A stretch of 64,000 bases of DNA from the IMG/VR virus record IMGVR_UViG_3300042556_002263. One strand, given 5' to 3'. The notes beneath the pieces were generated by a model, which did not search any database, was not told the DNA's origin, and saw only the letters and a program-made list of their open reading frames with translations. Every line of letters starts with the position of its first letter. The stretch's first letter is position 1. The DNA is from an uncultured virus (IMG/VR IMGVR_UViG_3300042556_002263). Lineage: Duplodnaviria > Heunggongvirae > Uroviricota > Caudoviricetes. Of this stretch, positions 4,429 to 18,678 are shown piece by piece. Made by a program: the position numbers and the translations under genes.

Positions 4429-4525
4429 GAGACCAGTTTGGCGTCTATCAGGGATAACAACAACCTCGACACACCCTTTTATTGAGTGACGACGGACACG
4501 GGTCGAAACCCGGGGCTGCGCCCTT

Positions 4526-4600
4526 GGGTGGGTCGGGGAGAAAGAAAGGAGAAACCCCGACCCACCCTTGGGGTCACCCGAGTTGGTTTCAGGTGACCCC
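4526..4600 (-). terminator. tandem GC-rich hairpins downstream of 4615..5034
   Basis: gggtgggtcgggg/ccccgacccaccc and ggggtcacc/ggtgacccc. Confidence 0.55.
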
Positions 4601-5034: not shown

Positions 5035-5147
5035 GTCTCCATTGTGGCTTGTAAGGGAGTGGGCAACAACTCTTTCCCACAGATTTATCTAGAAAGTTTC
5101 TTGGCTCATAGGTTGTGAGGCATAACGCTAAACGCCATACTGATTAC

Positions 5148-5441
5148 ATGAGCAACACAATCACCAAGCGAGACACGGACTGCCTCGCTTACAGCAACAA
5201 CGAACACGCCTTCTTCATCATTGAGGGTGCGTACCTCGCTTCCAGTCCGAAGAACAGTTCTGCCGTTCAGTTCTGGTCATACGACATTGCCAACGGCACT
5301 CTCACCGTTCAGTACAAGTCGTCACCGACTTTCTACCGATACGAGAGCGTTCCGTTTCAGGTCATCTTTGACCTCATGCTGGCAGACAGCCTCGGTCAGT
5401 TCATCGCAAAGGTGGTGAAGCCGAACTATTCGGTGGCGTGA
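5148..5441 (+). CDS. KTSC-domain protein
   Basis: SSAVQFWSYD...LTVQYK...YRYESVP...LMLADSLGQFIAKVVKPNY; leaderless start. Confidence 0.75.
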   Translation: MSNTITKRDTDCLAYSNNEHAFFIIEGAYLASSPKNSSAVQFWSYDIANGTLTVQYKSSPTFYRYESVPFQVIFDLMLADSLGQFIAKVVKPNYSVA

Positions 5442-5478
5442 GGTTGTCGTTCCGACACTTACAAGCCATAATGAAGGC

Positions 5479-5913
5479 ATGAGCATGATTACCCAAGAGC
5501 AACTAATCGGGTGGGCGAGAGAGATAGACGCTCAACTCCCCATTCCAACCGAACCCGAGGACACCACGACACCGTTGGATTTCGGCAGGACAGGCATTGT
5601 CGTTATGTCCGACAACGCCCCACTCCTTATCGCAGTAGGCGATGACCCGTTCGCACTCTTGGAGAGCGATGAGGTGCGTGTGTTCGCCCGTGGATACGGT
5701 GCGTTCTTCATGGTCACTTACGGTGGCGTAATCCAACAGGACATGGAGACAGGAGATACGGAGGCGCACATCGCTCGCTGTATCATGGGCATGACCTACA
5801 ACGGAGTGAACACGGCTCTCATGCGCTTCTTGGACAACGACCACATTGAGGTGGACATGGAAGGCACGGGCGCAGGCTCGGCACACGAAGCCATGTTGGA
5901 GGTGTTCGCATGA
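5479..5913 (+). CDS. hypothetical protein (distant paralog of 8847..9251)
   Basis: leaderless start after promoter 5442. Confidence 0.7.
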   Translation: MSMITQEQLIGWAREIDAQLPIPTEPEDTTTPLDFGRTGIVVMSDNAPLLIAVGDDPFALLESDEVRVFARGYGAFFMVTYGGVIQQDMETGDTEAHIARCIMGMTYNGVNTALMRFLDNDHIEVDMEGTGAGSAHEAMLEVFA

Positions 5914-6482
5914 ACCCGTCAGAACTTCTCGCCCGTATCGCAGAAACAGCGAAAGAGACGAAGTTGGAACTGTGCCAAGAGCACGGGGGCCCCGCCGATG
6001 GTATGCCCATCTTGCTTGGTCTTGACCCCGTGGGAACACCGTTCATGCTTCCCGATGTGCTGGAAGGACACCCGACAGACAACTTGGCTGTCATTCTGAA
6101 CCTGCTTGCTCAGAAACTCAACGAGAAGAATGAGACGATGAAGTGGGAGTGGCTCGCCTACATTGTTGAGGGTTATCTAAACGACTCTCCGACTGTGGAA
6201 GAACTAGATGCCCATGAACGGGGAGACTACGAACGGGACTACAAGAACAACCCTGCTTCCACGGTCAAGGAAGGACTCATCATCACATTGTTCACATGGG
6301 AGGGCGAGTCAGCCTGTGCGACCATCGTGTACCACTACGGTGACGATGGTATGCCCGTGTGGGAGAACACGCTGGAACCCGATGAGGAACCACAAGGCTT
6401 GGTTCCCGACATCTTCCGTGATTTCCGTACCTTCTGTCATTACGAGGGCGACATGAACGCTGTCCTCGCAAGCCGAGAATAG
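5910..6482 (+). CDS. acidic hypothetical protein
   Basis: ATGA overlap; EGY...V.E motif resembles 48715..49344. Confidence 0.7.
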   Translation: MNPSELLARIAETAKETKLELCQEHGGPADGMPILLGLDPVGTPFMLPDVLEGHPTDNLAVILNLLAQKLNEKNETMKWEWLAYIVEGYLNDSPTVEELDAHERGDYERDYKNNPASTVKEGLIITLFTWEGESACATIVYHYGDDGMPVWENTLEPDEEPQGLVPDIFRDFRTFCHYEGDMNAVLASRE

Positions 6483-6494
6483 GTTTCCACCACC

Positions 6495-6647
6495 GTGAAG
6501 TCTAAAGAAAGAGCGATAAGGCACGTTTTCTACGGCTTAGTGCTGTCGTATGCCGTTCTCTTTCCGAACCTCCACCCGGGGCTCACGCTCCTGTGCGTGG
6601 CAGGGTCGGTGTACGCCTACACGGTTGCGTTCCGAAACCTACAATAA
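6495..6647 (+). CDS. possible 50-aa membrane protein
   Basis: GTG..TAA ORF with two hydrophobic stretches; below ORF-track cutoff; no clear SD. Confidence 0.35.
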   Translation: MKSKERAIRHVFYGLVLSYAVLFPNLHPGLTLLCVAGSVYAYTVAFRNLQ

Positions 6648-6697
6648 ATCTTTCCCGACAGGTTGTTGCCTCGCCCCTTAGAAGCCATAATGAAGTT

Positions 6698-6947
6698 GTG
6701 AGGGCAACACCCTCCGAAATACATAGCAACCACTTCGGTTGTATCTATCGTTTGGCAACGCTAAGGCTCTTCGGATTGATAAGGCTCTTCTGCGAAACTT
6801 TGTTCTCCTAGGGAACATCGTCACTCCAGCAACCCGTCCTCTTCTCCGCAATCCGTCCGCCTCTCGCCAGTAGATACAGCCAGCCGACGGGCAAGAGGTG
6901 GGAGGGTCGCTCCCTCGGCTGTGTGTTTCGTAGGGTGTTGCGCTCAC
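6698..6947 (+). ncRNA. structured ~250-nt RNA (sRNA or 5' leader)
   Basis: Begins exactly at +37 of promoter 6661; first ~30 nt pair with last ~30 nt; several internal stems. Confidence 0.7.
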
Positions 6948-6961
6948 AGGAAGGAAACGAA

Positions 6962-7189
6962 ATGGATACTCTGTACGACATTGAGTGTAAGCAGAAGTAC
7001 GAAGAGATGTTGGCATCGGAGCCCCGAGAACCTGGCTATTCGCCGTCTCAACTGTTCTCTGTCATGGTCGTCATGCGCTGTAGTCGTGAGAAGGCTAAGT
7101 CCCTCATTGACAAGTACGCAAGTGAACTTGACTGGTCAGAATGTACTTGGTGCGAAATGCGGGACTACTTCATTCTCTGTACCTCATAA
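6962..7189 (+). CDS. hypothetical protein
   Basis: SD aggaagga directly after structured RNA. Confidence 0.65.
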   Translation: MDTLYDIECKQKYEEMLASEPREPGYSPSQLFSVMVVMRCSREKAKSLIDKYASELDWSECTWCEMRDYFILCTS

Positions 7190-7246
7190 GCAAACTTTCT
7201 TGTTGCCGAGGTTGTGGTCTCACTCACTACAAGCCATAATGAAAAC

Positions 7247-7579
7247 ATGATGACGCAGATAGAAGCAGTAGAACAGAGCAACACCGACACACTCCCCGAA
7301 TACCGAGTGCTGTGTGACGGGTTGGAAATCCAAGACAAGAGCGCACAGATGACTGTGACCGTCAAGAAGTACCGAAAGATGTACGAGAGGGTCAAGGGCG
7401 ACACCTACGCCACATGGACAGTCATGGTGAACATCACAGATGACTGTGGCAAGCCGTTCCATTCGTGGGGCGTATTCATGCTCACGGCAAGGTCAAATGG
7501 GTGGAGCCTGTTCGGTGGGGACTACTTCCACACCGAGGAAGAGGCACTCACTCGCTATTACGAAAGGGGTGGTGAGTGA
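7247..7579 (+). CDS. hypothetical protein
   Basis: leaderless start after promoter 7210. Confidence 0.7.
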   Translation: MMTQIEAVEQSNTDTLPEYRVLCDGLEIQDKSAQMTVTVKKYRKMYERVKGDTYATWTVMVNITDDCGKPFHSWGVFMLTARSNGWSLFGGDYFHTEEEALTRYYERGGE

Positions 7580-7616
7580 GGTTGTTATTCCAACCCTTAC
7601 AAGCCATACTGAACAC

Positions 7617-8123
7617 ATGAACAAGATGAACAAGAAACTTCAAGAACTTCTAGACCTTGCCGTAATCAACGGCGTGACCGTGGACGAACTTCTCCGAGAG
7701 AAGGAACTGGGCGCAAAGGTGGACAAGCCGTTCACTCTCGCACTCAAGTTTGACCGACTCCAAGAGTTGGTGGACTTCGTGAACAAGAACATCGCAGGTT
7801 GCGTGTGGCGAGCAGACGGGCTTGACCCTGAGTTCGGGACTCGCGGAGGAGCGAACTGTTATGTCATTCGTGGCGAGACCTGTTCCAAAGCAGAGGAACT
7901 CCGAATCACCAATCCTGACGGTTCACTCGCTGTGGAAGGCAACAAGCCCGAACAGTTCCGTGAGTGTCCACGCTGTACGCACTTCATTCCCAATGACGAA
8001 ACGCCCGGGGCTTACCCCGGAGCCATCTCCCGAGTGGACAATGAGACAGAAATCTGTTCGTCGTGTGGCGTTGAGGAAGCACTTCTCCAGTATCAGGGAA
8101 TCTTGGAAGACTGGCGTAAGTAG
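7617..8123 (+). CDS. hypothetical protein with C-terminal CxxC...CxxC
   Basis: leaderless start; CPRC...YPGAISRVDNETEICSSCG. Confidence 0.7.
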   Translation: MNKMNKKLQELLDLAVINGVTVDELLREKELGAKVDKPFTLALKFDRLQELVDFVNKNIAGCVWRADGLDPEFGTRGGANCYVIRGETCSKAEELRITNPDGSLAVEGNKPEQFRECPRCTHFIPNDETPGAYPGAISRVDNETEICSSCGVEEALLQYQGILEDWRK

Positions 8124-8159
8124 GTTGTGACCTGTCGGCTTACAAGCCATAATGAAGGC

Positions 8160-8576
8160 ATGAGCAACACTTTCATCGCCTCAGGCGAAATCACCAACGA
8201 CTGCCAATGCCTTGTCTACAACGACGGCTCAGGCGACCAATCACTTGACCCCGACTACACCTGTTATGGGGACTGTTGGGAGTTTGCCGTTGAGGACTTC
8301 ACAATGCTGACAGAGGACTTCCGAAAGACCAACCTGTCGGGTTGGTGGAAGGTCACCGACTTGCGCCTGTGGAACGGCAACACCTCAGGTTACTTCCATG
8401 CCGACAATGTGGCAGGACTCATTGAGGGCATGACCGTCCGTTCAGGTTGGACAATGCGCTACGAAGTCTTTGCTGACCGCATTGAGTACTCGCTGTCTCA
8501 CCATGACGCACCCACGGGGAGCGCAACCACGCTGACCGTTGTCACCGAGGAAGAGGCTGAGAGGTTGGGGCTGTGA
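8160..8576 (+). CDS. hypothetical protein
   Basis: leaderless start after promoter 8123. Confidence 0.7.
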   Translation: MSNTFIASGEITNDCQCLVYNDGSGDQSLDPDYTCYGDCWEFAVEDFTMLTEDFRKTNLSGWWKVTDLRLWNGNTSGYFHADNVAGLIEGMTVRSGWTMRYEVFADRIEYSLSHHDAPTGSATTLTVVTEEEAERLGL

Positions 8577-8794
8577 ACGAAGAGTTCCGCACCGACTATG
8601 TCACCCGAGAGTTCGGAGGCTTGGTGGGCAAGACTGTCAAGGCAGTCCGCCCCCTCAGCCCCGCCGAGTGCGCTGAGTTCATGTGGCAGTACGACTCTCA
8701 AATGGCATGGCTCATTGAGTTCACGGACGGGACTCTCGCCGTGCCGTCGTGCGACCCCGAAGGCAACGGCAGGGGACACCTGATTATTCTCTGA
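8573..8794 (+). CDS. hypothetical protein
   Basis: GTGA overlap; DPEGNGRG motif. Confidence 0.65.
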   Translation: MNEEFRTDYVTREFGGLVGKTVKAVRPLSPAECAEFMWQYDSQMAWLIEFTDGTLAVPSCDPEGNGRGHLIIL

Positions 8795-8846
8795 TAAATC
8801 TGTGTGGCAGGTTGTCGTCTCTGCCCTTACACGCCATAATGATTAC

Positions 8847-9251
8847 ATGAACCACAAACACATCACCGAACAAATCATCACCGATACCCCAATGGAACTT
8901 CCACAGGCTGTCCTGTACGGAGTGAACCCACAGGGCGACACGGTGGAACTCGGTCGTTATCCCGACATTTACGACCTTCTCGCAAAGGACTACGACAACG
9001 AGAACCTTGTCGGTATCGCAATCCACACAACGGGTTGGGCGGCACCACTCAACGCAGACGGGGAAGTGGAAGGCGCACCTAGCGCACACCCCAATCGTGT
9101 CCGTGTTGCGCTTGTCGCCACAATCACCACTCACGGTTTCTGCTCGGCTATCGCCTTCGGTGACGGTCGTGAGACTGTCTTTGAGGAGAACGCCCCTTCG
9201 GGTGCGTTGTGGGAAGCCATGAACGACTGCTTGGAAAGGTTGGTGGGGTAA
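8847..9251 (+). CDS. hypothetical protein
   Basis: leaderless start after promoter 8810. Confidence 0.7.
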   Translation: MNHKHITEQIITDTPMELPQAVLYGVNPQGDTVELGRYPDIYDLLAKDYDNENLVGIAIHTTGWAAPLNADGEVEGAPSAHPNRVRVALVATITTHGFCSAIAFGDGRETVFEENAPSGALWEAMNDCLERLVG

Positions 9252-9290
9252 TCCCCCACTCGCCCAGCGCACTTCGGGGTAAGTCCCCCG

Positions 9291-9338
9291 TTGTGCGTGT
9301 CGGCAGTCCCGGCGTCCTGAGACACGCACAAGTTTTTT
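9291..9338 (+). terminator. intrinsic terminator
   Basis: ttgtgcgtgtc/gacacgcacaa followed by T-run. Confidence 0.6.
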
Positions 9339-9472
9339 GTCTCACAGGTTGTTACATAACTTCTTAGAAGCCACAATGTACGACCCTTTCCACAGATGTC
9401 TGTGGATAAGAAATCTCATTTTTTTTGCGAGGTGAGGTTGCCCCCTAAACGCTTACACGCCATAATGAAGGT

Positions 9473-9850
9473 ATGAAGAAAGCACTAATCATCAAGGCAG
9501 ACGGAACACTCCCTACCGTCATAGAAATCCCGTCACAGGTGGAGACCTATCAGGTCATCAAGGACACGGTTGCCAGCCCAAACGGGGATTGGTTTGACTG
9601 TGTGCGTGGAGAGTCGTTTCACGGCTATGTGAACGACACAGGTCTGATTGACGGACTCCCCATGAACCCGATTGCTTCCATCCTGTTCGGGCAGGTCTTG
9701 TGTGGAGATGTAATCCTGTTCGGGTCATACTCTCCCAAGGGCGAGTATGACGGTGACGAGTACGACATTCCCGAATGGGTAGTCGCAAATGTCCGTTCAG
9801 CGTTCATGCTGTGGAAGATGAACGCAGACGCTCAGGCGGTCTGGGTATGA
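9473..9850 (+). CDS. DUF3846-like protein
   Basis: YVNDTGLIDGLPMNPIAS...LCGDVILFG pattern; leaderless start. Confidence 0.6.
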   Translation: MKKALIIKADGTLPTVIEIPSQVETYQVIKDTVASPNGDWFDCVRGESFHGYVNDTGLIDGLPMNPIASILFGQVLCGDVILFGSYSPKGEYDGDEYDIPEWVVANVRSAFMLWKMNADAQAVWV

Positions 9851-10089
9851 CCCCTTTCCGCCACCGTCGCTTCATTAGAAAGAAGAAACTCCGTTACCCA
9901 GCAGCCCCGCAGCCCGATTGGAAGCGCATAGAGAAGGGCAGAGCAGATAGTGGCAAGTTCACGCCGAACGGGGCCACCGACAGGCAGGCTCGCCTGAACA
10001 TTCATCAGTATCCCCATGACCGTGCCGACTACGAAAAAAATCCGTTTCGGAATGTTGTGAACCCAACCCTTACAAGCCATAATGGACTT

Positions 10090-10257
10090 ATGAGGGAAGG
10101 AGGAATCACCGAGATGAGCAAGTCGCATCGTGTCGCAATGGCACAGGCACTTATCACCGAACTCGCCGAGGCGCACCAGCGTCACGGTGATACGGAAGGC
10201 ACTCGGCGGTTGCAGGCGATGGTCGCCCGTATGGTCGCCGAACTGCTGTACCGCTAA
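10090..10257 (+). CDS. hypothetical protein
   Basis: leaderless ATG at 10090 (alternative SD-led ATG at 10114). Confidence 0.55.
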   Translation: MREGGITEMSKSHRVAMAQALITELAEAHQRHGDTEGTRRLQAMVARMVAELLYR

Positions 10258-10537
10258 TCGGTAAAGTGCTACCGAGTCAGACTCGGCGCTCGGGGGAGCG
10301 TGGCAACAGAATCCCCCCAGCCCCCACGGAGGTTCCCGTGGGCGTTCACGGAGTATGGCTCCGAGGCGCAAGCCCCCCTTGCGTTAGCACTCTGAGTGCC
10401 GTGAACCCCTACGGGAGCAACTGTGGTGAGTGGCTCCGCGCGGGACTCAAGCCGTGGGTGGGTACTCCTTTATCTCCCTGCCCACGGCTTCCGCATCACA
10501 CTCCCACATGGGGCATAATGAGCCCCGAGGTACAACT

Positions 10538-10954
10538 ATGTCTGACACAATCACCACAATCTGCGACAACTGCGAGCGTGAGGTCAAGAGCGTTTACATG
10601 GGCGTGGACTTGCCCGATAACGGTCTTTACTTCTCGCCTAACAGCATGGGCTATTACGCAGGCTTCTTTGACAACTTCCCACCTGACGAAGAGGACAAGG
10701 ATGGGTATTCCATTTGCCACGAATGTGCCGTGAACTTCATGACTGCGTTGCCGGGGCTGGCGAAGCGTCTGCTCCCGTTCGGAGGGGGACACCCGATAAG
10801 CGGTCACTACCCTGACCCACCTTGCTGTCCGTGGGCGTGGACATGGGACGAGGAAGCCCCGTGTCCCGAGTGTGGAGCCGTCACGACCTGTCTCGCCAAT
10901 CACGACATGATGTGGGAAAGACAAAAATGTCGGTGCCTGAGGTTGTCAAACTAA
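10538..10954 (+). CDS. Cys-rich hypothetical protein
   Basis: SD gaggt; several CxxC. Confidence 0.65.
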   Translation: MSDTITTICDNCEREVKSVYMGVDLPDNGLYFSPNSMGYYAGFFDNFPPDEEDKDGYSICHECAVNFMTALPGLAKRLLPFGGGHPISGHYPDPPCCPWAWTWDEEAPCPECGAVTTCLANHDMMWERQKCRCLRLSN

Positions 10955-10977
10955 CCCTTACAAGCCACAATGGGTGT

Positions 10978-11247
10978 ATGACCAACTACGACGCATGGCT
11001 CGAGAAGCCGTACCAAGACCAATACGACGCAGAAGTGACACGCAACCTCATCTGCTCAGAGGACAAGGAAGAGGGCGACCCCTACTGCGACTACGAGGGC
11101 GAGGCTGATGCCTGCGTCACGGACGAGTCAAGCGGTAAGCGTTGGTGGTCGGTGACCTACGAGGGCGAGTGTCCGAAGTGCGGTGCCTCTTTCCGACAGA
11201 CGGAAGGCGACTACGACGACTCCCCCGAGGAGTACTGGTACGGATGA
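10978..11247 (+). CDS. acidic Zn-ribbon-like protein
   Basis: leaderless; CPKCG; N-terminus shared with 15222. Confidence 0.7.
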   Translation: MTNYDAWLEKPYQDQYDAEVTRNLICSEDKEEGDPYCDYEGEADACVTDESSGKRWWSVTYEGECPKCGASFRQTEGDYDDSPEEYWYG

Positions 11248-11510
11248 AAATCTACTGGGATGACGACCTAGTTCCAGGCGACTTCCTGGAACACCTGGAA
11301 GAGTCGGGCTACAACGAACCCGAGGACTGCGTTTGCGAATGTGGGGAAATCACCGAGGGCGTAGCCCCGTGGTTCCATCTGTCGGCGAACGGGCTGTGGA
11401 TTCACTACGAGTTCCCGTGCGGGGCTTGCGACGCACAGTCCACCGAGGCGATGGACATAACTGACATCTATGCCCGTTGGGGCGTGAGAAAGTTGGAGAA
11501 ATCTCTCTGA
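11244..11510 (+). CDS. acidic Cys-rich protein
   Basis: ATGA overlap; CVCECG, CGAC. Confidence 0.6.
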   Translation: MKIYWDDDLVPGDFLEHLEESGYNEPEDCVCECGEITEGVAPWFHLSANGLWIHYEFPCGACDAQSTEAMDITDIYARWGVRKLEKSL

Positions 11511-11551
11511 TGAAAGTTGTGAAGTCCACCCTTACAAGCCACAATGATGGT

Positions 11552-11800
11552 ATGACCACCACAACGAAGTACACAGATACCTTTCAGGGCTTGCTTGACT
11601 GCGAGTACTACTCCCTCGGCGCAACGGGCGCAGAAGCGTTGGCAGCGATGCTTGACGACTACAACGAGGGTCGCCTCACCGAGTTCCTCGCAGAGCAGGG
11701 CGTGACGGACGCAGAGTTCCTCGCAACCGTGAACCGCCTCGCCGTGAAGTGGGCGAGCGAGAACCTCCTCAACTTCCGAATCGGGGTGGACGGGCGATGA
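11552..11800 (+). CDS. hypothetical protein
   Basis: leaderless start after promoter 11515. Confidence 0.65.
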   Translation: MTTTTKYTDTFQGLLDCEYYSLGATGAEALAAMLDDYNEGRLTEFLAEQGVTDAEFLATVNRLAVKWASENLLNFRIGVDGR

Positions 11801-12015
11801 ACCAGCCAACCGAAAGCATCCTCGCAATCTTGCGAACCTACAAGGGGAAGCGAGTACGCCTTCACCACACAAGTGATGCGTTCACCCGCCTAGTCCCGGG
11901 CGACGAAGGCGTCGTCACTTTCGTTGATGACTGCGGGACTGTCCATGTCGCATGGGACAACGGTTCCACCCTCGGACTTATTTACAGAGAAGATAGTTAT
12001 GAGGTTGTGGCTTAG
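11797..12015 (+). CDS. DUF4314-like protein
   Basis: GKRVRL...D...PGDEGVV.FVDD.GTVHVAWDNGSTLGLI...D. Confidence 0.7.
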   Translation: MNQPTESILAILRTYKGKRVRLHHTSDAFTRLVPGDEGVVTFVDDCGTVHVAWDNGSTLGLIYREDSYEVVA

Positions 12016-12039
12016 TCCCTTAGAAGCCATAATGAACAT

Positions 12040-12498
12040 ATGGGATTAGACCAATACTTATCAGCAAAAACAGTCGTAGTGGGTGGAGACAGCCCACGAA
12101 GCGAGACCTACAACAAAATCCTCACAGCAGTCGGCTCACCGACAACCCGTGAGCGAGTTCTGCCAATGGCGACAGTCACCGTTCAGGTGGGCTACTGGCG
12201 CAAAGAGAACGCCATTCACAAGTGGTTCGTGGACAATGTTCAGGACGGCGAGGACAACTGTGCCGAATACTTTGTCGGCAGAGAGCAGTTGGAAGAACTG
12301 AAAGAACTGTGCGAGAAAGTTCTCGCAGACCACTCACTCGCAGGCGAGTTGCTTCCCACGCAAGAGGGCTTCTTCTTCGGCTCAACGGAGTTTGACGAGT
12401 GGTACTTCACGGGACTGCGTGACACGGTGGAAATCGTGAACCTTTGCTTCTCACCTGAGTACGAGAACTGGGAGTTCACATACCAGTCGTCTTGGTAG
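12040..12498 (+). CDS. conserved phage protein (MGLDxY / YWRKxNAIHxWF family)
   Basis: MGLDQYL, VGYWRKENAIHKWFV, GFFFGS, YQSSW. Confidence 0.7.
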   Translation: MGLDQYLSAKTVVVGGDSPRSETYNKILTAVGSPTTRERVLPMATVTVQVGYWRKENAIHKWFVDNVQDGEDNCAEYFVGREQLEELKELCEKVLADHSLAGELLPTQEGFFFGSTEFDEWYFTGLRDTVEIVNLCFSPEYENWEFTYQSSW

Positions 12499-12703
12499 GG
12501 GCTTTCCGCCACCGTGACCACATTAGATAACACTTCTCCTCGGTCGGGGAGTCCCGCCGGTGATAAATCCTTCCCTCATAGGCTTATCCACAGGCGGGGC
12601 TCTCTCAGGGGGTGTGTCAGGGTTGTTTATCCACAGGAAAGTTGTGGATAACTTTCTTCGGTGGAATGTTGTGAGTACGACCCTTACAAGCCACAATGGA
12701 GTT

Positions 12704-13009
12704 ATGAGCAACACAGCAACCCTCAAAAAGTCCCTCACGGGGAAGTTCACCTACATTGAGTACACCAACGGCGAGTGCGCCATTATCGGCGAGGACTACA
12801 TCATGTCGTTCCCTGAGAACAGCACGGCTATCGCAGAGTGGACATACCGACCTGCCGTACAGAACCTTGTGGTCGCCTACAAGAACAGCACCACCACCTA
12901 CATCTACGAGGGTGTCCCCATGAGCGTCATCTTCGCCATGCTCACAGCCGACAGCCTCGGTGCGTTTATCGCCCGTGAGGTCAAGCCGAACTACGGGGTG
13001 AAGGTCTAA
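12704..13009 (+). CDS. KTSC-domain protein (paralog of 5148)
   Basis: STAIAEWTY...YIYEGVP...ADSLGAFIAREVKPNY. Confidence 0.75.
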   Translation: MSNTATLKKSLTGKFTYIEYTNGECAIIGEDYIMSFPENSTAIAEWTYRPAVQNLVVAYKNSTTTYIYEGVPMSVIFAMLTADSLGAFIAREVKPNYGVKV

Positions 13010-13194
13010 TGGGCTTGTTCACGACCTACCTCGCCTACAAGGTGGGCAAGCGTGTCGGCAGAAGCGGGGCAGAGCCCGACGAGTTCTTCACGGGCGACCC
13101 GACCTGCCTACACTATGACGAGTGTGCCAACGAAGGTGGGTGTCTCAACCGTGCCTGTGAGTTCGGAGAAATCTCGGATGAAGGTTGTTGTTAG
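13009..13194 (+). CDS. small Cys-rich protein
   Basis: TAATG overlap with previous gene. Confidence 0.55.
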   Translation: MGLFTTYLAYKVGKRVGRSGAEPDEFFTGDPTCLHYDECANEGGCLNRACEFGEISDEGCC

Positions 13195-13219
13195 TCCCAC
13201 TAAAAGCCATAATGAATGT

Positions 13220-13336
13220 ATGAGCATCAACGACATTTACGAAAACTGGGACACCCCCGACACCTGCTATTGCCGAGACAACTACGAAGGCGAGTGCCGA
13301 GTGTGTGAAAAAGAGGAAGAGGAGGACGACGAGTGA
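13220..13336 (+). CDS. 38-aa acidic Cys protein
   Basis: leaderless start after promoter 13183. Confidence 0.6.
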   Translation: MSINDIYENWDTPDTCYCRDNYEGECRVCEKEEEEDDE

Positions 13337-13914
13337 CCAAGCGCAAGCGCAGGGTAGAGCAACTGTGCCTGCCCGAAGAACTACCCATGCTGGTTGAGTC
13401 GCTGGCTCAGGCGTGGATGCTGGGCGCAGCCCCGAAGGTCGTACAGAACGCCTGTGTCGCAGGCGCACGGTTCGCCGTTGAGTACCTTCGGCGTGTCGGC
13501 GTAGAGGCGTGGGCTACGCAGGTGGATGCTCTCGCCCTAGACGAGCAGTCGTACCAAGATGTTCTCGCCAAGCGAAATCCAACTGGCTGGTCGGTCGGGG
13601 CTCTCTCGCTGACCACCGTACCGAACACATGGAACGGTCATGTTGTTGTGGAGACGCAGGACTGGTTCATTGACCTGACGGCAGGGCAGATGAGCCGACC
13701 ACACAAAGAAATCACGATTCTCAACGGGCTGTGTGTCCCAACCGAAAAACTGCTTCACCATGAAAATGTTTGGCAAGGTGAGTGGTATGAAGTCCCGGTA
13801 TCCCAGGGTCACTACCTGTTCAGGGACGCCGTGGTTCAGAGAGACATCACCACAGCCCCCGACTGGCACGGTGGTCTAGACCTTCTAAAAGATGTTGTAA
13901 AACTTACCGACTGA
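13333..13914 (+). CDS. putative transglutaminase/papain-like Cys-His-Asp protein
   Basis: NACVAG...WNGHVVV...FIDLTAGQ triad spacing. Confidence 0.5.
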   Translation: MTKRKRRVEQLCLPEELPMLVESLAQAWMLGAAPKVVQNACVAGARFAVEYLRRVGVEAWATQVDALALDEQSYQDVLAKRNPTGWSVGALSLTTVPNTWNGHVVVETQDWFIDLTAGQMSRPHKEITILNGLCVPTEKLLHHENVWQGEWYEVPVSQGHYLFRDAVVQRDITTAPDWHGGLDLLKDVVKLTD

Positions 13915-13951
13915 GGTTGTGGTTGTGTTCACTACAAGCCATAATGGGTGT

Positions 13952-14182
13952 ATGAGCAACACCAACATCCAATGCGAATACTGTGGCGAAGTCCCCATTT
14001 CGGGAGACTGTCCCCACGGCTGTCACGAGCGTCTCCCGAAGGCGTGGCGCAACGGCAGATACATCTACTGCCTGAGCCACAGCACGGAGCAGGTCTTTGA
14101 GTACGAAATCATCTACAAGGGCGACCCTGCGCTGTCCTACGGTAAGCGCAAGTGCGACTGGTGTAAGAAGGTGCTGGCATGA
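13952..14182 (+). CDS. small Cys-rich protein
   Basis: leaderless; CEYC, CPHGC, CDWC. Confidence 0.65.
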   Translation: MSNTNIQCEYCGEVPISGDCPHGCHERLPKAWRNGRYIYCLSHSTEQVFEYEIIYKGDPALSYGKRKCDWCKKVLA

Positions 14183-14328
14183 GCAGGCGCAAGCACATTG
14201 CCCAAGACAAGTGGTGCGAAGCCGACAGGCAAGCGTTCGCTGACGGAAATCGTCTAAGGGCGACCACCATTCCTGACAAGCGCAAGAAAGCAAGCCGAGA
14301 AGCCTGCCGAGCATGGAGGCCCCGATGA
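14179..14328 (+). CDS. small basic protein
   Basis: ATGA overlaps at both ends; RATTIPDKRKKASREACR. Confidence 0.55.
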   Translation: MSRRKHIAQDKWCEADRQAFADGNRLRATTIPDKRKKASREACRAWRPR

Positions 14329-14484
14329 TAGGCACGCTTGCGTTTATCTGCTGGTTGTCTATTATCGCTTATGCCATACACAAAGGAGTCTGAGCATGAG
14401 CGAGTATCTAGGAATGTTTGCGGTTTGTAGCCTGCTGTTCTTTGCGGTTTCGTACATCATCAAGAACTGGTAGACTCGGGGCTC

Positions 14485-14673
14485 ATGGCACGATACATCT
14501 GCGAAATCTGTGATGCCGAAGTAGACCCCAAAGCATCTAATGTCTTACACCTTGTGACCGTTTGGGTAAAGGGCGGGTCTAACAGCATCAAGAAAACCGA
14601 AACACAGCATTATCGTTTCGTTCACGACTTCTGCCAACGCCCCGCGAATGAAGACCAACTTTCTTTGTTCTAA
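14485..14673 (+). CDS. small Zn-finger-like protein
   Basis: CEIC...HDFC. Confidence 0.6.
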   Translation: MARYICEICDAEVDPKASNVLHLVTVWVKGGSNSIKKTETQHYRFVHDFCQRPANEDQLSLF

Positions 14674-14730
14674 CCAAATAATGTTGTAAGACAGGTTGTT
14701 GTTCTAACCACTAAACGCCATAATGAGTGT

Positions 14731-15048
14731 ATGGATAACTACAACATCACCCTCAATAAGAATGAGTTGCGTGTTGGTGGTCGGAAGGTGGCAACCGTGT
14801 CAAACTTCCCTGCCTTGCGTGACGCATTGTTCTCAAACCTGACACGACACGAAGCCGTGTACCTCGCTGTTTCACTTCTCGGTGAAGCCCGAACTGCCGA
14901 AATCGCCAAACTGCTTGGCGAGGACAAGGCAAACACTACGAAGCGTTTGGAAGCACTCGTAGATGACGGCAGGCTGACAATCGTGGAAACGGCAAACCGA
15001 AAGCCGGGACCGGGTCGCCCCTCTCGTGTGTGGGCGATAGCCGACTAA
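14731..15048 (+). CDS. winged-HTH DNA-binding protein
   Basis: ARTAEIAKLLGEDKANTTKRLEALVDDG...GRPSRVW; leaderless. Confidence 0.75.
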   Translation: MDNYNITLNKNELRVGGRKVATVSNFPALRDALFSNLTRHEAVYLAVSLLGEARTAEIAKLLGEDKANTTKRLEALVDDGRLTIVETANRKPGPGRPSRVWAIAD

Positions 15049-15221
15049 GGCTTTCCGCCACCGTAAGGGCATTAGAAACACACAACCTTCGGGGGCGAAG
15101 CCCCGCGCAGAGTTTGTTAGTTCGCAACGATTGTTGTTTAGCATCAGTTGTGGATAAACCTGTGGATAACTTTATGGTGGTCAAGGTTGTTGTTTCTACC
15201 ATTACAAGCCATAATGGGTGT

Positions 15222-15416
15222 ATGACCGATTACGACTCATGGCTGGAACAGCCCTACCAAGACCAATACGCATGGGACGACCTGTGCGAACAGTACGAAG
15301 GTACTGACCAACACAAGGAAGACCTTGCCGAGTGGCTTGCGGAGAATCCCGACATGAAGGCAGAGGACTTCTGGGACTACTGCGAGGACTTCGTGAGAAG
15401 GTGGGCAGACCGATGA
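15222..15416 (+). CDS. small acidic protein
   Basis: leaderless after promoter 15185. Confidence 0.65.
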   Translation: MTDYDSWLEQPYQDQYAWDDLCEQYEGTDQHKEDLAEWLAENPDMKAEDFWDYCEDFVRRWADR

Positions 15417-15643
15417 ACCAAGACGACTTTGACCAAGACCCCGAGGAGAGCCCCGAGTTCGTTCCCGTAGAGGAGAGCGAGGATGAGGAGTTTGACCCGT
15501 TCAGCGACCCGAACTACCATGCCCCCAACAGGTGTAGCGACCCTAACTGTTGGGAGTGTGATGACGACGATGACGGGGCTGGCTCGGAGAAGTTCCCAGG
15601 CGAGGACATTTGGTGGAAGACCAACGACAAGTGGAACAAATAA
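15413..15643 (+). CDS. very acidic small protein
   Basis: ATGA overlap; D/E-rich. Confidence 0.6.
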   Translation: MNQDDFDQDPEESPEFVPVEESEDEEFDPFSDPNYHAPNRCSDPNCWECDDDDDGAGSEKFPGEDIWWKTNDKWNK

Positions 15644-15691
15644 TCTTCATGGAATGTTGTGATTCTGACTCTTACAAGCCATAATAGAAGT

Positions 15692-15859
15692 ATGAGTGCT
15701 ATGAAACGAATCACCGAAATACTGGACGACATGTTCCGTCCGATGTGTCCCAAGTGCGGGTACATCCCCAAGAACAAGCCCGAGGGCTACTGCTTCTACT
15801 GCGAAATGGCAGGAGACTGGTGCCAGTGCGATGTGTCTGACATGTGTAAGTGCGACTGA
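15692..15859 (+). CDS. small Cys-rich protein
   Basis: leaderless; multiple CxxC. Confidence 0.6.
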   Translation: MSAMKRITEILDDMFRPMCPKCGYIPKNKPEGYCFYCEMAGDWCQCDVSDMCKCD

Positions 15860-16041
15860 TGCCGAACAGGTGGTCACACAGGTGTTCGGGGTGCGGCGCA
15901 GCCCCGATAAACGGTTTCTGCCCGTACGGGTGCGAGGAGTTTCTCTGCGGAGACTGCGCCCAAGACGAAGCCTATGCCGAAGAACTGCGGGGCTACCCGC
16001 TGGCGCAACTACCCCCGTGCGACCGATGTGGAAATAAATAG
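15859..16041 (+). CDS. small Cys-rich protein
   Basis: TGATG overlap; four Cys pairs. Confidence 0.55.
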   Translation: MPNRWSHRCSGCGAAPINGFCPYGCEEFLCGDCAQDEAYAEELRGYPLAQLPPCDRCGNK

Positions 16042-16095
16042 GTAAATCTTTCTCAACAGGTTGTGGTCATAACTACTAAATGCCACAATGAAGAT

Positions 16096-16236
16096 ATGAA
16101 CGAAGAAACCTTCCCCATCATCAAGTGCGTCACCGAAGAGTGCGAGAACATGACCGACATGGTCGTCTGCGAGGACTGCGTGGACAGAATGCTCCCTGCC
16201 TACGAGCGACACCTAGAGAGGCAACAGGGGCTGTAA
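16096..16236 (+). CDS. 46-aa Cys-containing protein
   Basis: leaderless ATG at +37 of promoter 16059. Confidence 0.6.
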   Translation: MNEETFPIIKCVTEECENMTDMVVCEDCVDRMLPAYERHLERQQGL

Positions 16237-16385
16237 GCCCCCTAGTCGCCGTTGTGCTACATTCTCACCAAGCGAGGTGAGACTATGAGCAATGGCAGAA
16301 TAAAGGGCAAGAAGTACGGCGGTCTGTTTGACTGGAGGCGTAAGCCGACCACACGGACTGGTGCGAAGAAGCGGAAGAGCAAGTA

Positions 16386-16712
16386 ATGCCCGTTGGTTGG
16401 GGCGGCAGCCCCGGTGCAGAAGAAATGACTGGCGACTTAGCGCAATACACCAAGTACTTTGCTCTCCATGACCTTGACTTTGACATCATGTACAGGTCGG
16501 GGCTGTGGAGTGTGACGGTTTGGGGAAAACGAGAAATCCCACCCGTGAAGGTGAGAAATGTGAAAGTAATGGACGACACAGATGGTGGATTTCATTGGGA
16601 ATACTCCACACTCACTCATTTGCGAGACTTTGTTGCGACGAGCGAGTCCCGCGCGACGCTTGACGAGGCTTTACAGCAGGCGTATCAAGCCGTGAAGGTG
16701 GCTAGGGTCTAG
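16386..16712 (+). CDS. hypothetical protein
   Basis: ORF coupled to a small basic ORF 16285..16386; start uncertain. Confidence 0.5.
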   Translation: MPVGWGGSPGAEEMTGDLAQYTKYFALHDLDFDIMYRSGLWSVTVWGKREIPPVKVRNVKVMDDTDGGFHWEYSTLTHLRDFVATSESRATLDEALQQAYQAVKVARV

Positions 16713-16879
16713 CCCTTCCGCTGAACCCAGCCGTCGCCCTCAGGCTCCCAGCCAGCGTCCTTGAGGAGTCCAACGATGACCTGCATCGCAATCCACTCCC
16801 CCTTGTCCAGTATCGCCTTTGCTTCGGCGAGGTACTTGACTTCGGTGGGGTGCTCTTCTATGTACTGATTGCTGTTCAT
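16709..16879 (-). CDS. hypothetical protein
   Basis: leaderless after minus-strand promoter 16916. Confidence 0.65.
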   Translation of the reverse strand: MNSNQYIEEHPTEVKYLAEAKAILDKGEWIAMQVIVGLLKDAGWEPEGDGWVQRKG

Positions 16880-16942
16880 ATGACCATTATGGCGTCTAAG
16901 CAACCGAACCACAACCTCTAATTTATTTGTATTGTACAACAA

Positions 16943-16958
16943 TGTTTCACGAGAAACA
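16943..16958. promoter_or_regulatory. parS-like palindrome
   Basis: TGTTTCACGAGAAACA vs consensus TGTTTCACGTGAAACA (1 mismatch), extended by aa/tt. Confidence 0.6.
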
Positions 16959-17005
16959 TTGGTCGGCAGGTTGTGGTCAGACCCACTACAAGCCATAATG
17001 AAGGT

Positions 17006-17278
17006 ATGAAAGCAACCAAGCCCAACCCCCAAGACCTCCTCCTCATCGCCTTCAAGGCTGCTGAACTGGAGGTTCTCCTGAAGCGACTCGGCACCATGCC
17101 CTCTTACTTCAACCCGAACCCAGCCGACCTGCCCGACCTGCCGTGGTCGACCACGACCCTCGCCAACCTTGTGAACGACCTCGCCTCGGTCACGAGGTTG
17201 ATTGACGACGAGATGGAGCAGGAAGAGTGGGGCATCACCGACGACATGGTCGACGAAATCTGCGAGGTTCTCGGATGA
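17006..17278 (+). CDS. hypothetical protein
   Basis: leaderless after promoter 16969. Confidence 0.65.
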   Translation: MKATKPNPQDLLLIAFKAAELEVLLKRLGTMPSYFNPNPADLPDLPWSTTTLANLVNDLASVTRLIDDEMEQEEWGITDDMVDEICEVLG

Positions 17279-17319
17279 CGCAGGTTGCGAAGCCGACCCT
17301 TACAAGCCATAATGGTGAT

Positions 17320-17589
17320 ATGAACAACAACGACACCATCGACCTCGGCATGTACACAGATGGGGGCAACAACCTCCTCGCTGAAGCCCTCATGGACGCC
17401 CTGCGTGTCCCCGCCCACGAGTTCCCCCGTGACGGACACGAGGACTGGTTCACGGCGTGGGTGAAAGCCCATCCTGTTCACAGCGGGGCCCTCGTACGGC
17501 ACACCGAGTGGACAGATACCGATGTGATGGACAGGGTGGTGTGGGCGCTGTCTGACCCCGAGCGTGGCATGAGGTGGCTCACCTCCTGA
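17320..17589 (+). CDS. hypothetical protein
   Basis: leaderless after promoter 17283. Confidence 0.65.
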   Translation: MNNNDTIDLGMYTDGGNNLLAEALMDALRVPAHEFPRDGHEDWFTAWVKAHPVHSGALVRHTEWTDTDVMDRVVWALSDPERGMRWLTS

Positions 17590-17781
17590 GGGCTTTCCGC
17601 CACCGTGACTCCATTAGAAAAGCGCATTTGTTCCCCGGAGGGGCCCCGCGTGTCTATTTAGCGAACTGAGGGCGCGGGGCGTCCGAAAGGGGGTGTGTCA
17701 TGGTTTCCTGTGGACAAATCTGTGGATAACTTTCCCTGCCTTCGGGTTGTGGTGATACCCACTACAAGCCATACTGGCGGC

Positions 17782-17964
17782 ATGACCAAACACACCAACC
17801 CCACCCCCATCGGCACCTCCCTTCCGCTCGCCCGCAAGGTGAAGCGCCGTCCCCTCACGCCCGTCACCCACGAGGGCGACCACCCTGGTGCCTTCGGGCT
17901 GACCTACGAGGAGTTGCACGGGCTCGTGCGCTGGGCGCAGGCGATGAGGGGGGAGGTCGTGTGA
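17782..17964 (+). CDS. hypothetical protein
   Basis: leaderless after promoter 17745. Confidence 0.6.
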   Translation: MTKHTNPTPIGTSLPLARKVKRRPLTPVTHEGDHPGAFGLTYEELHGLVRWAQAMRGEVV

Positions 17965-18029
17965 ACCCATCGCCCAAAATGTTTGAGAACGAGGTTGTTG
18001 TTTTGACCCTTACACGCCATAATGGTGAT

Positions 18030-18092
18030 ATGAACATTTTCATAGCCGTTTACGCAATAGCCTCAGTCACCATGATTTTGTGGGCAAGGTAG
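18030..18092 (+). CDS. 20-aa hydrophobic peptide
   Basis: MNIFIAVYAIASVTMILWAR; ATG at +37 of promoter 17993. Confidence 0.55.
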   Translation: MNIFIAVYAIASVTMILWAR

Positions 18093-18641: not shown

Positions 18642-18678
18642 GGTTGTGAAACCATCGCTTACAAGCCATAATGAAGTT

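Follow-up and report, generated by a model that had tools for sequence, protein, structure and literature searches.

Several described systems come close to the RNA reported here in one respect or another. The packaging RNA of phage phi29 (pRNA; Rfam Phage_pRNA) forms rings via loop-loop pairing, and its intermolecular complementarity is kept across relatives. Proteins are sequestered by small RNAs such as CsrB/RsmZ, 6S, Ms1, and the adenovirus VA RNAs, and the 6C sRNA of actinobacteria has C-rich loops. In T7 early mRNA, the sites of RNase III processing are plain hairpins some 50-60 nt long, and rRNA has processing stalks. In type III toxin-antitoxin systems, the RNA is made of tandem repeats of ~34-45 nt, located directly upstream of the toxin endoribonuclease gene. 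GOLLD, ROOL, and OLE measure 500 nt or more. PMC12286853 describes these three as large ornate RNAs, often borne by phages or prophages, that form RNA-only homo-oligomers, and PMC516450 describes the dimer-linkage elements of retroviruses (gamma- and alpharetroviruses, Maedi-Visna virus) as palindromic stem-loops and GACG tetraloops.

On the + strand of the window, by which we mean the whole 64,000-nt stretch analysed (from an uncultured tailed virus, IMG/VR record IMGVR_UViG_3300042556_002263), lies a gene for an elaborately folded non-coding RNA of ~250 nt (Table 1). The + strand of 6698-6947 folded at −114.8 kcal/mol, compared with −76.3 ± 4.6 kcal/mol for 200 dinucleotide shuffles, none of which equalled it (z −8.42), and the − strand gave a z of −3.79. 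Covariance model R1 matched at 6692-6955 of the + strand with 170.7 bits, its sole match within the 64 kb. The fold is multi-branched (P1 to P5 and H3); P1, P2, and P3 lead into a long interior that holds m1, m2, H3, m3, and m4, and P4 and P5 follow. P1 consists of 28 pairs in runs of 5, 10, and 13 bp with two 1x1 mismatches between the runs, and is the strongest true inverted repeat of the window, divergent promoter pairs excepted. A highly structured + strand RNA of ~250 nt had been proposed in an initial annotation of the window. Every string named there is present where it was placed, including the two copies of UAAGGCUCU (6762-6770 and 6780-6788), and both the fold and the strong covariation described below bear the proposal out.

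Table 1. Features of the RNA gene and its surroundings in the window.
Feature	Positions	Strand	Sequence and remarks
Cassette promoter	6663..6691	+	−35 TTGTTG (6663-6668), 17-nt spacer, −10 CATAAT (6686-6691)
Folded RNA gene	6698..6947	+	~250 nt; one helix locks both ends; predicted ends
P1, 5' strand	6698..6727	+	Pairs with 6918-6947
Alternative 5'-terminal hairpin	6700..6714	+	GAGGG-CAACA-CCCUC; 6700-6704 with 6710-6714; competes with distal P1
P2, 5' strand	6730..6736	+	CCACUUC; pairs with GAGGUGG 6895-6901
P3, 5' strand	6737..6748	+	GGUUGUAUCUA(U); pairs with 6870-6881
Motif m1	6762..6770	+	UAAGGCUCU; invariant
Motif m2	6778..6788	+	GAUAAGGCUCU; invariant, partly by construction of search patterns
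Hairpin H3	6801..6817	+	UGUUCUC-CUA-GGGAACA; apical palindrome CCUAGG at 6807-6812
Motif m3	6833..6844	+	CCCGUCCUCUUC; CCGYCCUC type, pyrimidine-rich; in all 36 full-length sequences tabulated
Motif m4	6851..6863	+	AUCCGUCCGCCUC; second CCGYCC motif
P3, 3' strand	6870..6881	+	(G)UAGAUACAGCC; pairs with 6737-6748; helix-level support
P4 hairpin	6883..6892	+	GCC-GACG-GGC; GACG tetraloop 6886-6889; stem covaries
P2, 3' strand	6895..6901	+	GAGGUGG; covariation and fold
P5 hairpin	6902..6916	+	GAGGG-UCGCU-CCCUC; covariation
P1, 3' strand	6918..6947	+	Pairs with 6698-6727; both-side changes and inverted repeat
SD-like sequence	6948..6958	+	AGGAAGGAAAC; 1 nt past P1 end
Next gene	6962..7189	+	ATG 6962, stop 7187-7189; encodes 75 aa; matched no known family; region 6948..7189

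When the whole window was compared with Rfam 15 (4227 models) at the gathering threshold, only nine tRNA matches were returned, from tRNA genes at 25.1 and 46.2-47.4 kb that do not adjoin the RNA. A permissive search (E up to 10) of 6600-7000 gave mir-2970 as the best match, at 17.6 bits (threshold 72), followed by Corio-PBP at 14.3 bits (threshold 63.5); the initial annotation had likewise recognised no family. Pattern searches identified members in 25 of 33 viral-contig matches and 47 of 113 metagenome matches, amounting to 40 distinct sequences. In cellular genomes, none of the 31 pattern matches was a member, all of them being chance or coding tandem repeats, and distant-mode blastn with the window region and two other members found no match, at the sensitivity of blastn, among 50,697 isolated phage records. 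One contig is an identical copy and adds no independent evidence. The family comprises two architectural types, with 25 window-type members and 13 sequences of the second type, and there are single-unit versions in L319 and L327 (mutually identical) and in L329. Two divergent copies occurred in 7 of the 18 viral contigs of the first scan; a later scan added a second copy to an eighth viral contig and a third copy to another, and two metagenome contigs also carry two copies. By capsid protein, the nearest isolated relatives of the phage are actinobacteriophages. Literature searches with the motif strings retrieved only primers and unrelated items, and topic searches yielded no description of the family. 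As far as these sequence searches reach, the family is confined to uncultured lake-water phages and is uncatalogued. The catalogue published in PMC10690425, which comprises 10,006 RNA candidates without names drawn from IMG/VR, may list it. No known family or mechanism fits this RNA.

Within the 25 window-type members, 27 of the 36 pairs changed on both sides (compensatory changes), and 94.3% of 900 cells could pair, compared with 75.6 ± 0.9% in shuffles (none of 500 as high) and 38-46% in slid controls; homolog covariation was a check that the initial annotation had itself suggested. The second type had compensatory changes at 28 of 56 pairs. Both-side changes were found in the 25 relatives at 15 of 19 pairs of helices 1 and 2 (P1), and further at 5 of 6 pairs of helices 3 and 4 (P2; 99-100% of cells pair), at 4 of 5 pairs of helix 7 (P5; 97.6% of cells pair), and at all three stem pairs of P4 (GC/CG/UA). 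For P3, cognate strands from 20 distinct sequences paired with a mean of −12.3 kcal/mol, versus −7.3 kcal/mol for non-cognate strands. The closing stem, the GGUUGUAUCUA/UAGAUACAGCC stem, the UGUUCUC/GGGAACA stem (H3), which is supported by evolution, and the GGGAG/CUCCC stem (P5) had all been drawn in the initial annotation and are retained here. Two other elements of that drawing were abandoned. The AGCCGA/UCGGCU stem clashes with the covarying helices P4 and P1, and the pseudoknot between CCCGUC-CUCUU and GACGGG-AAGAGG, as drawn, clashes with P4 and P2; it is unsupported because its GACG forms the loop of the covarying P4 hairpin and its GAGG is part of helix P2, which covaries too. The alternative 5' hairpin (GAGGG/CCCUC), which had also been noticed, is likewise supported by evolution. 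A local hairpin can form at every one of the 19 distinct window-type 5' ends, with means of −7.1 kcal/mol and z −3.1, and in nine of them its cap is a UNCG or GNRA tetraloop. Judged from the aligned members, the stems covary, and the motifs and loops stay fixed.

The invariant motifs are beyond the reach of the covariation test. Motif m1 is exact in all members. For m2, invariance was in part built into the search patterns, which included this motif, and the same holds for m1 in most scans; a scan via m2 plus CCGYCCUC, which did not require m1, nevertheless found m1 in 24 of 24 two-motif members. The first search pattern did not include m3. A scan with an m3-m4-GACG pattern gave three members in 119 among the matches listed. 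Both RNAalifold and the single-sequence fold paired the GGC of m1 and m2 with G-Y-C of m3 and m4, pairs that are unproven since they are invariant. Fixed-register covariation around the UAAGGC cores detected only invariant GA/UC pairs; stems flanking UAAGGC (H1 and H2) exist in many members, with shifting registers. Three explanations for the motifs were considered and set aside. Mimicry of GAUAAGG, the anticodon-loop sequence of tRNA-Ile, was rejected, as the flanks yield no anticodon stem and conservation is lacking at the U33 position. For mimicry of the 16S 3' end, or an anti-SD role, only four contiguous pairs with the 16S tail are possible, and a Rho trap formed by the C-rich stretch would leave the strict conservation of AUCCGYCC without explanation.

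Two loops of the RNA are self-complementary. Every one of the 26 distinct m2-m3 regions has a hexamer palindrome, whereas shuffles show one in 10.1 regions on average and in 19 at most. Seven apical hexamers were distinguished (CCCGGG, UCUAGA, CCUAGG, GCUAGC, CUGCAG, ACUAGU, and CCGCGG), the choice of the apical palindrome among the hexamers being our own reading. Their central four bases vary (CUAG, CCGG, CGCG, or UGCA), and on this comparison the variation is a coupled change at positions that are unable to pair within one tetraloop. The second loop is GACG in all 13 second-type members and in all but one of the 25 window-type members (37 of 38), and its closing pair covaries. Both elements of retroviral dimer linkage named in PMC516450 have a counterpart in this one RNA, namely a self-complementary apical hexamer (26/26) and a GACG tetraloop hairpin (37/38), and the palindrome changes between lineages yet stays palindromic. 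The retroviral elements, however, belong to the leader of a viral genome, whereas the counterparts here are in a small phage RNA with no packaging or nucleocapsid context, whose dimerisation is a prediction from its sequence. The likeness is best taken as a functional analogy reached by convergence, not as membership. On the strength of the conserved self-complementary loops, the RNA probably self-associates. Several members, however, carry the palindrome in a loop of 3-4 nt at the tip of a long stem, where the geometry would be tight for kissing. The palindrome could instead mark the site of a dimeric protein, and GACG could pair intramolecularly with CGUC of the CCGUCC motifs, a pairing that 34 of the 36 sequences tabulated would allow.

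Early promoter cassettes form an array in which the RNA fills a single slot, beginning at the point where the other cassettes start a leaderless protein gene. The promoter motif AGCCATAATGA (with one mismatch or less) has 23 matches in the window, against 0.75 expected, and alignment of 20 + strand sites gave GGTTGT..N17..CATAAT. In 18 of these 20 sites, an ATG follows exactly 6 nt past the −10 hexamer, and 6698, the predicted first base of the RNA, has the identical offset from its −10. A start at a cassette promoter, as initially annotated, agrees with this arrangement. The sister promoters at 5444 and 8125 pass a sigma-70 scan; the promoter at 6663-6691, with 3 of 6 matches in its −35 hexamer, is absent from the list of that scan. 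No promoter of its own was visible for 6962-7189, so in this phage the gene is probably transcribed together with the RNA; having no terminator and abutting the ribosome-binding site of the next gene, the RNA is here also a 5' leader. The neighbouring genes gave no match to an RNA-binding protein family. As a hint of expression, RNA-library contigs from two studies, X15 (6742-6905) and X17 (6733-6897), are 100% identical to the window and lie inside the RNA; they are short, with a depth of about 3, DNA carry-over is possible, and two further contigs, X16 and X19, covered only neighbouring genes. Gaps in this coverage carry no weight either way.

Comparison with the described systems showed partial likeness in each case. 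With the phi29 pRNA, this RNA shares phage origin, expression from a promoter, a stable fold, the lack of a conserved coding frame, and retained loop complementarity, which here is the self-complementarity of the H3 apex and only by inference intermolecular. The phi29 pRNA, however, uses two distinct complementary loops and is encoded at the genome end beside packaging genes, whereas here each loop is self-complementary, the neighbours are small early genes of takeover type, Rfam gives no match, and the capsid protein links the phage to tailed actinophages rather than to phi29-like phages; the missing match, the self-complementary loops, and the early-gene neighbours led us to reject membership of the pRNA type. 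Like GOLLD, ROOL, and OLE, it is an orphan, highly structured, covarying, phage-associated RNA with candidate kissing contacts; unlike them, it is ~250 nt in size, matches none of their models, and is not beside the tRNA genes of the window. As in protein-sequestering RNAs, a short invariant motif is repeated on a variable scaffold, several paralogues may share a genome, and expression is early and probably abundant. The motifs here are UAAGGC and CCGYCCUC rather than GGA, and there is no 6S-like rod whose large central bubble mimics an open promoter; a 6S or Ms1 decoy (RF00013, RF02566) was rejected, given the multi-branched fold and the absence of a match at E up to 10. The RNase III sites of T7 mRNA and the processing stalks of rRNA resemble P1 in being a long, near-perfect helix formed from both ends of a unit in a polycistronic early transcript, here directly ahead of a gene start. 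In contrast to the T7 sites, the helix here encloses a conserved 190-nt domain, and its cleavage is proposed by analogy. A type III antitoxin RNA was rejected because the motifs are nested (m1, m2, H3, m3, m4), not tandem, and no downstream gene is conserved.

We then weighed other explanations of the locus. That it is a DNA-level element (an origin, iterons, or palindromes for protein binding) or a small leaderless protein gene is largely refuted, and we regard it as extremely improbable. Its direct repeats (two copies each of TAAGGCTCT and CCGTCC), long inverted repeat, and hexamer palindrome would suit an origin too, and a GTG stands at the predicted transcript start, where other cassettes carry a leaderless ATG. 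Against this, it is only on the + strand that G-U pairs maintain the helices (89 G-U versus 20 A-C cells), model R1 scores the 25 window-type members at 143-224 bits on the + strand and detects only 2 of 25 on the reverse strand (20 and 13 bits), the hairpin stems contain G-U wobbles, and the 5' hairpin has UNCG or GNRA caps, which are of consequence in RNA alone. The GTG ORF (6698-6811), whose conservation would have spoken against an RNA in the initial annotation, was rejected as a gene since its start codon and frame are not conserved; a 5' start codon is absent from 13 of 25 relatives, the remaining ORFs have 9-65 aa in differing frames, and in the near-identical L079 the ORF stops after 17 aa. 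Another reading is that of a leader or processing module acting in cis, with the closing helix as an RNase III-type site or switch for 6962-7189 and the interior as a regulatory aptamer. In the window and in L079, a single nucleotide separates the end of the stem from the ribosome-binding site of the next gene with no promoter between, and the conserved 5' hairpin, by competing with distal P1, makes two conformations possible. The initial annotation had the closing stem end at the SD of the next gene, which is true of these two phages only; in most relatives, a promoter or a terminator-like hairpin follows the RNA. Most window-type relatives have a new −10 (TATAAT) behind it, second-type members end in strong hairpins, a U8 run follows the RNA in L101, and in the syntenic L009 an extra promoter and gene separate the RNA from the homologue of 6962-7189. 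Moreover, the downstream gene is not conserved, no protein family is common to all flanks (the largest cluster was of spurious − strand ORFs over the RNA itself), and a genome may hold two or three copies. Membership among cis-regulatory leaders or riboswitches was rejected on account of the inconstant downstream gene and the promoters or hairpins behind most members, and the module as a whole seems rather unlikely; of the decoy, ribozyme, and switch initially suggested, a cis switch is the least likely.

A role in base pairing, in which the CCGYCCUC(C/U)UC motifs would be seeds for purine-rich, SD-like mRNA regions and shift translation to the leaderless early genes, we consider improbable to a similar degree. 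In its favour, the motifs are conserved, the stretch that holds them has few G residues and is mostly unpaired in the folds, the motifs invite comparison with the C-rich loops of 6C sRNA, and with 18 of 20 cassettes leaderless, a block of SD-led translation could favour the phage. Within the 64-kb window, however, there are no complementary sites for UAAGGCUC and two for CCGYCCUC, judged to be about chance; AUCCGYCC is conserved more strictly than an anti-SD-like seed requires, and the Rfam 6C model gave no match. More doubtful still, and in our view very unlikely, is a ribozyme or ligand-binding RNA, with the four invariant strands as a catalytic or small-molecule pocket and the stems as scaffold. 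Ribozymes and aptamers typically combine, as this family does, invariant strands at the junctions with outer helices that covary freely, and the duplicated motif pair, with single-unit versions in L319/L327 and L329, recalls tandem aptamers. Yet none of the ribozyme or riboswitch models of Rfam gave a match, even with E allowed up to 10, there is neither an expression platform nor a conserved regulated gene, and no cleavage site is suggested by the sequence.

The explanation we propose is a folded non-coding phage RNA that acts in trans, is stable, kisses copies of itself, and has an invariant core that serves as a factor-binding platform; we put its chances at about even. The RNA would act as RNA and not via the neighbouring gene, because neighbours differ between phages, most relatives have a promoter of the RNA's own before it and a promoter or terminator-like hairpin behind it, and copies are often multiple. 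The paired ends and the conserved 5' hairpin would confer stability, and may mark the RNA for excision by RNase III from the early transcript. Two or more copies would kiss through the H3 palindrome and the GACG tetraloop, much as retroviral dimer linkages do. The working core would consist of the four invariant strands, most likely as a two-fold binding platform on which a factor of the host or the phage is captured early in infection. A more far-reaching version, which we hold tentatively and think doubtful, is a phage particle made of RNA only that self-assembles through the H3 apex and GACG, the two devices by which retroviruses, independently, link their genomes, the dimer or ring being a multivalent UAAGGC/CCGYCCUC trap in the takeover of freshwater actinobacteria.

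Structured RNAs of this size with such covariation are rare, and the known examples proved functionally unexpected. This family is restricted to phages of abundant lake bacteria, where it lies amid early host-takeover genes; these phages use the slot of a leaderless-gene cassette to express an RNA, the invariant core of which is unlike any catalogued RNA. If its loops mediate assembly, the RNA would be a small, tractable addition to the newly recognised RNA-only complexes and a striking convergence with retroviral genome dimerisation.

The plus-strand RNA at 6698-6947 of the window folds with a predicted energy of −114.8 kcal/mol (z −8.42), which was equalled by none of 200 shuffled sequences; the minus strand of the same stretch gave a z-score of −3.79. 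No other genuine inverted repeat in the window is as strong as its closing helix (I3). Another inverted repeat, I4 (10317-10351/10399-10433; 35-nt arms, 74% complementary, 47 nt apart), may be a further structured element or a terminator. The GC-rich 25-nt repeat I7 (4514-4579; 80%, 16-nt spacer), which is located inside minus-strand ORFs or at their 3′ end, upstream of the start of the plus-strand gene array, could be a terminator.

An identical copy of the RNA was present on one IMG/VR fragment. The syntenic relative L009, whose adjoining 190-aa protein is 56% identical, carries a homologous RNA in which the closing stem CACCCUCCG/CGUAGGGUG is changed to CCUCUUGCG/CGCAAGAGG, with obvious compensatory changes. 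Relatives were sought by way of UAAGGCUCU-N(3-14)-GAUAAGGCUCU, the duplicated motif. This pattern matched 33 stretches in viral contigs, with 25 members on 18 contigs, and 113 in metagenome contigs; the family HMM scored 47 of the latter at 29-180 bits. The 31 stretches from cellular genomes included no member (HMM ≤21 bits, covariance model ≤19 bits), and the top four were coding or tandem repeats when inspected by eye. After duplicates were dropped, 40 distinct family sequences remained. The family comprises the window-like type (25 rows in the covariance-model alignment), a second type with a different closing helix and a single inner helix (13 sequences), and single-unit minis recovered by another pattern (the identical L319 and L327, and L329), in each of which UAAGGCUCU, a palindromic hairpin and AUCCGUCCUC occur once. 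Two divergent copies occur on 7 of the 18 viral contigs and two copies on 2 metagenome contigs; a scan with another pattern gave an eighth viral contig a second copy and another contig a third. L329 is the third copy on a contig already holding two full-size ones, and the window has one copy.

RNAalifold predicted 36 pairs from 22 window-type sequences, with compensatory changes in 27, and the covariance model was built from this alignment. On the plus strand it gave each of the 25 window-type members 143-224 bits; on the reverse strand it matched only two (20 and 13 bits). When the 25 sequences were aligned to the model, standard pairs filled 94.3% of 900 cells, a figure biased in favour of structure by the fitting, and both sides changed in 27 of the 36 pairs. 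Column shuffling left 75.6 ± 0.9% of cells paired (0 of 500 shuffles reached the observed value), and sliding partners by 1-3 columns left 38-46%. The slid controls and the independent RNAalifold result on the MAFFT alignment argue for a real covariation signal. Because G-U cells exceed A-C cells (89 versus 20), pairing is selected on the plus-strand RNA. Since the alignment splits helix P3, it was tested at helix level: cognate strands paired at a mean of −12.3 kcal/mol versus −7.3 for non-cognate strands (20 distinct sequences). Of the 56 pairs predicted for second-type RNAs, 28 had compensatory changes.

The initial annotation had raised the alternative that a short GTG-initiated ORF was the conserved element. 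Comparison of ORFs across the 25 window-type rows ruled this out: in 13, none of the start codons ATG, GTG and TTG lies 2 nt or less from the aligned 5′ end, and the ORFs of the other 12 run to 9, 9, 9, 17, 18, 19, 19, 19, 32, 32, 37 and 65 aa. In the near-identical relative L079 the ORF ends after 17 aa versus 37 in the window, and the same conserved bases are read in different frames in the window and L009. With start codon, length and frame all varying among relatives, the stretch was rejected as a protein gene.

The RNA lies in a plus-strand array of small genes (window ~5.4-23 kb), each of which has a copy of a repeated promoter in front of it. With ≤1 mismatch allowed, the window has 23 matches to the motif AGCCATAATGA, against 0.75 expected. 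When the 20 plus-strand sites were aligned, 18 (5444-23080) showed GGTTGT, 17 nt, CATAAT and an ATG exactly 6 nt past the −10 hexamer. Textbook spacing puts the transcript start at that ATG, so these 18 cassette genes would be leaderless. Nearly the whole early array thus looks leaderless, which is consistent with an actinobacterial host; leaderless mRNAs are common in Actinobacteria, in agreement with the capsid relatives of the phage. Site 34886 lacks a −35 hexamer and is probably a chance match. The RNA has its promoter at site 6683: at the offset where sister cassettes carry the ATG lies the G (6698) of GUGAGGG, with which the closing stem begins. The proposal that the RNA starts exactly at a cassette transcription start therefore has all the support that sequence alone can offer. 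The inverted repeats 5028-5070/5443-5485 and 16869-16917/17282-17330 are oppositely facing promoter copies, marking short minus-strand units inside or beside the array.

A local 5′ hairpin, suggested earlier as an alternative fold, can form in all 19 distinct window-type 5′ ends (mean −7.1 kcal/mol, mean z −3.1). Nine are capped by UNCG (UUCG ×4, UACG, UCCG) or GNRA (GCAA ×2, GGCA) loops, which by our own arithmetic are expected in ~5% of random tetraloops. The long-range duplex that competes with this hairpin has by far the greater stability (−8 to −26 kcal/mol), and its distal pairs (helix 1) covary, so the hairpin is read as a co-transcriptional or alternative state. It would shield the 5′ end and, in a host translating leaderless mRNAs, would conceal the GUG or AUG at the terminus.

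Features of the RNA in window coordinates (P, helices; H3, hairpin; m, invariant motifs)
Feature	Position	Paired with	Strand	Remark
P1	6698-6727	6918-6947	+	
Two unpaired A	between P1 and P2		+	
P2	6730-6736	6895-6901	+	
P3	6737-6748	6870-6881	+	
m1	6762-6770		+	UAAGGCUCU; interior
m2	6778-6788		+	GAUAAGGCUCU; interior
Small sub-domain	6790-6792	6827-6829	+	closed by CUG/CAG
H3	6801-6817		+	hairpin, apex CCUAGG
m3	6833-6844		+	CCCGUCCUCUUC
m4	6851-6863		+	AUCCGUCCGCCUC
P4	6883-6892		+	GCC-GACG-GGC
P5	6902-6916		+	

Three of the stems drawn in the initial annotation match P3, H3 and P5; AGCCGA/UCGGCU overlaps P4 and P1 and is unsupported, and the pseudoknot, which would need bases of the P4 stem-loop and of the P2 strand, is unsupported as drawn. 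The sub-domain is closed in relatives by CUUG/CAAG, GUCG/CGAC or AGUG/CACU. Both RNAalifold and the single-sequence fold pair m1/m2 with m4/m3, giving AGA-UAA-GGC over G-Y-C-C-UCU twice, one copy nested in the other. The U/C variation in G-Y-C-C faces G and is compatible with this pairing; the pairs are otherwise invariant, leaving it an unproven candidate.

While the stems vary freely, two UAAGGCUCU motifs, two CCGYCCUC motifs and the GACG loop of P4 are invariant. All 24 two-motif members recovered by a pattern not requiring m1 carry it exactly, and both CCGYCCUC motifs are present in 36 of 36 tabulated sequences. The P4 loop is GACG in 24 of 25 window-type and 13 of 13 second-type RNAs, with closing pairs switching among C-G, U-A and G-C. 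The H3 apex varies in sequence (7 apical forms), with a hexamer palindrome in all 26 distinct regions; after shuffling, 10.1 of the 26 had one on average and 19 at most. Its central tetranucleotide alternates among CUAG, CCGG, CGCG and UGCA, changes being coupled at loop positions 1/4 and 2/3, where intra-tetraloop pairing is impossible; in several members the palindrome sits within an 8-14-nt loop. The simplest reading of these patterns is that H3 would pair between two RNA copies. In MoMuLV, GACG forms a kissing complex of two base pairs. The elements listed for retroviral dimer linkages in PMC516450 are palindromic stem-loops and GACG tetraloops, exactly those found in this RNA. Alternatively, GACG could pair intramolecularly with CGUC of m3 or m4; such pairing is not universal, since relatives L052 and L112 have CGCC in both motifs.

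Gene 6962-7189 (75 aa; product without a family match) follows the RNA in the window with neither promoter nor terminator in between, so the RNA there is also the leader of that gene. Judged from the relatives, this arrangement is the exception. A TATAAT −10 comes directly after P1 in most of the window-type ones, and L009 has an additional promoter and gene after the RNA. Strong GC-rich hairpins end second-type members, and a U8 run ends the relative L101. No protein family was common to all flanks compared. These downstream promoters and hairpins, the lack of a common flanking family and the paralogues favour a self-standing RNA. In many relatives (including L010, L013, L019 and L139) the 3′ strand of P1 extends into the −35/−10 region of the next cassette promoter (..CUGAGGAAUGUAUAAUGA), so that RNA structure and promoter share sequence. 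Short RNA-library contigs from two studies (6742-6905 and 6733-6897; 100% identical) fall wholly inside the RNA; they are a weak hint of expression, since DNA carry-over is possible and the contigs show no ends.

The window is a phage genome segment encoding a head protein, primase/helicase, ribonucleotide reductase, thymidylate synthase, nine tRNAs and a 3715-aa ORF. Major head proteins of Brevibacterium and Gordonia phages share 45-49% identity with that of the window, and DNA runs containing the RNA stretch came from lake-water or freshwater metagenomes. The long ORF (31919-43066, minus strand) has only a weak, sub-threshold Peptidase_M90 match near its C-terminus. The tRNA genes form two clusters (46209-47446, plus; 25091-25249, minus), neither adjoining the RNA. 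G+C content is ~0.50-0.58 in the early/replication half (1-30000) versus ~0.42-0.51 in the structural half (30000-64000). Early genes at 5115-5441 and 9473-9850 encode a KTSC domain (41.8 bits) and DUF3846 (31.3 bits), respectively; the remaining neighbour genes tested had no family match.

Rfam gave no match to the RNA at gathering scores or at E up to 10. Three family members had no blastn match among 50,697 isolated phage records, and literature searches on the motif strings and topic found no description of the family. The family may be among the 10,006 candidate RNAs that PMC10690425 catalogues from IMG/VR. That 6698-6947 represents a genuine, uncatalogued phage RNA family is strongly supported. 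The best-supported proposal for its mechanism is a trans-acting, self-joining early RNA: a stable transcript acting in trans, whose copies would join through the palindromic apex of H3 and the GACG loop, and which would present the duplicated invariant core to a putative partner.
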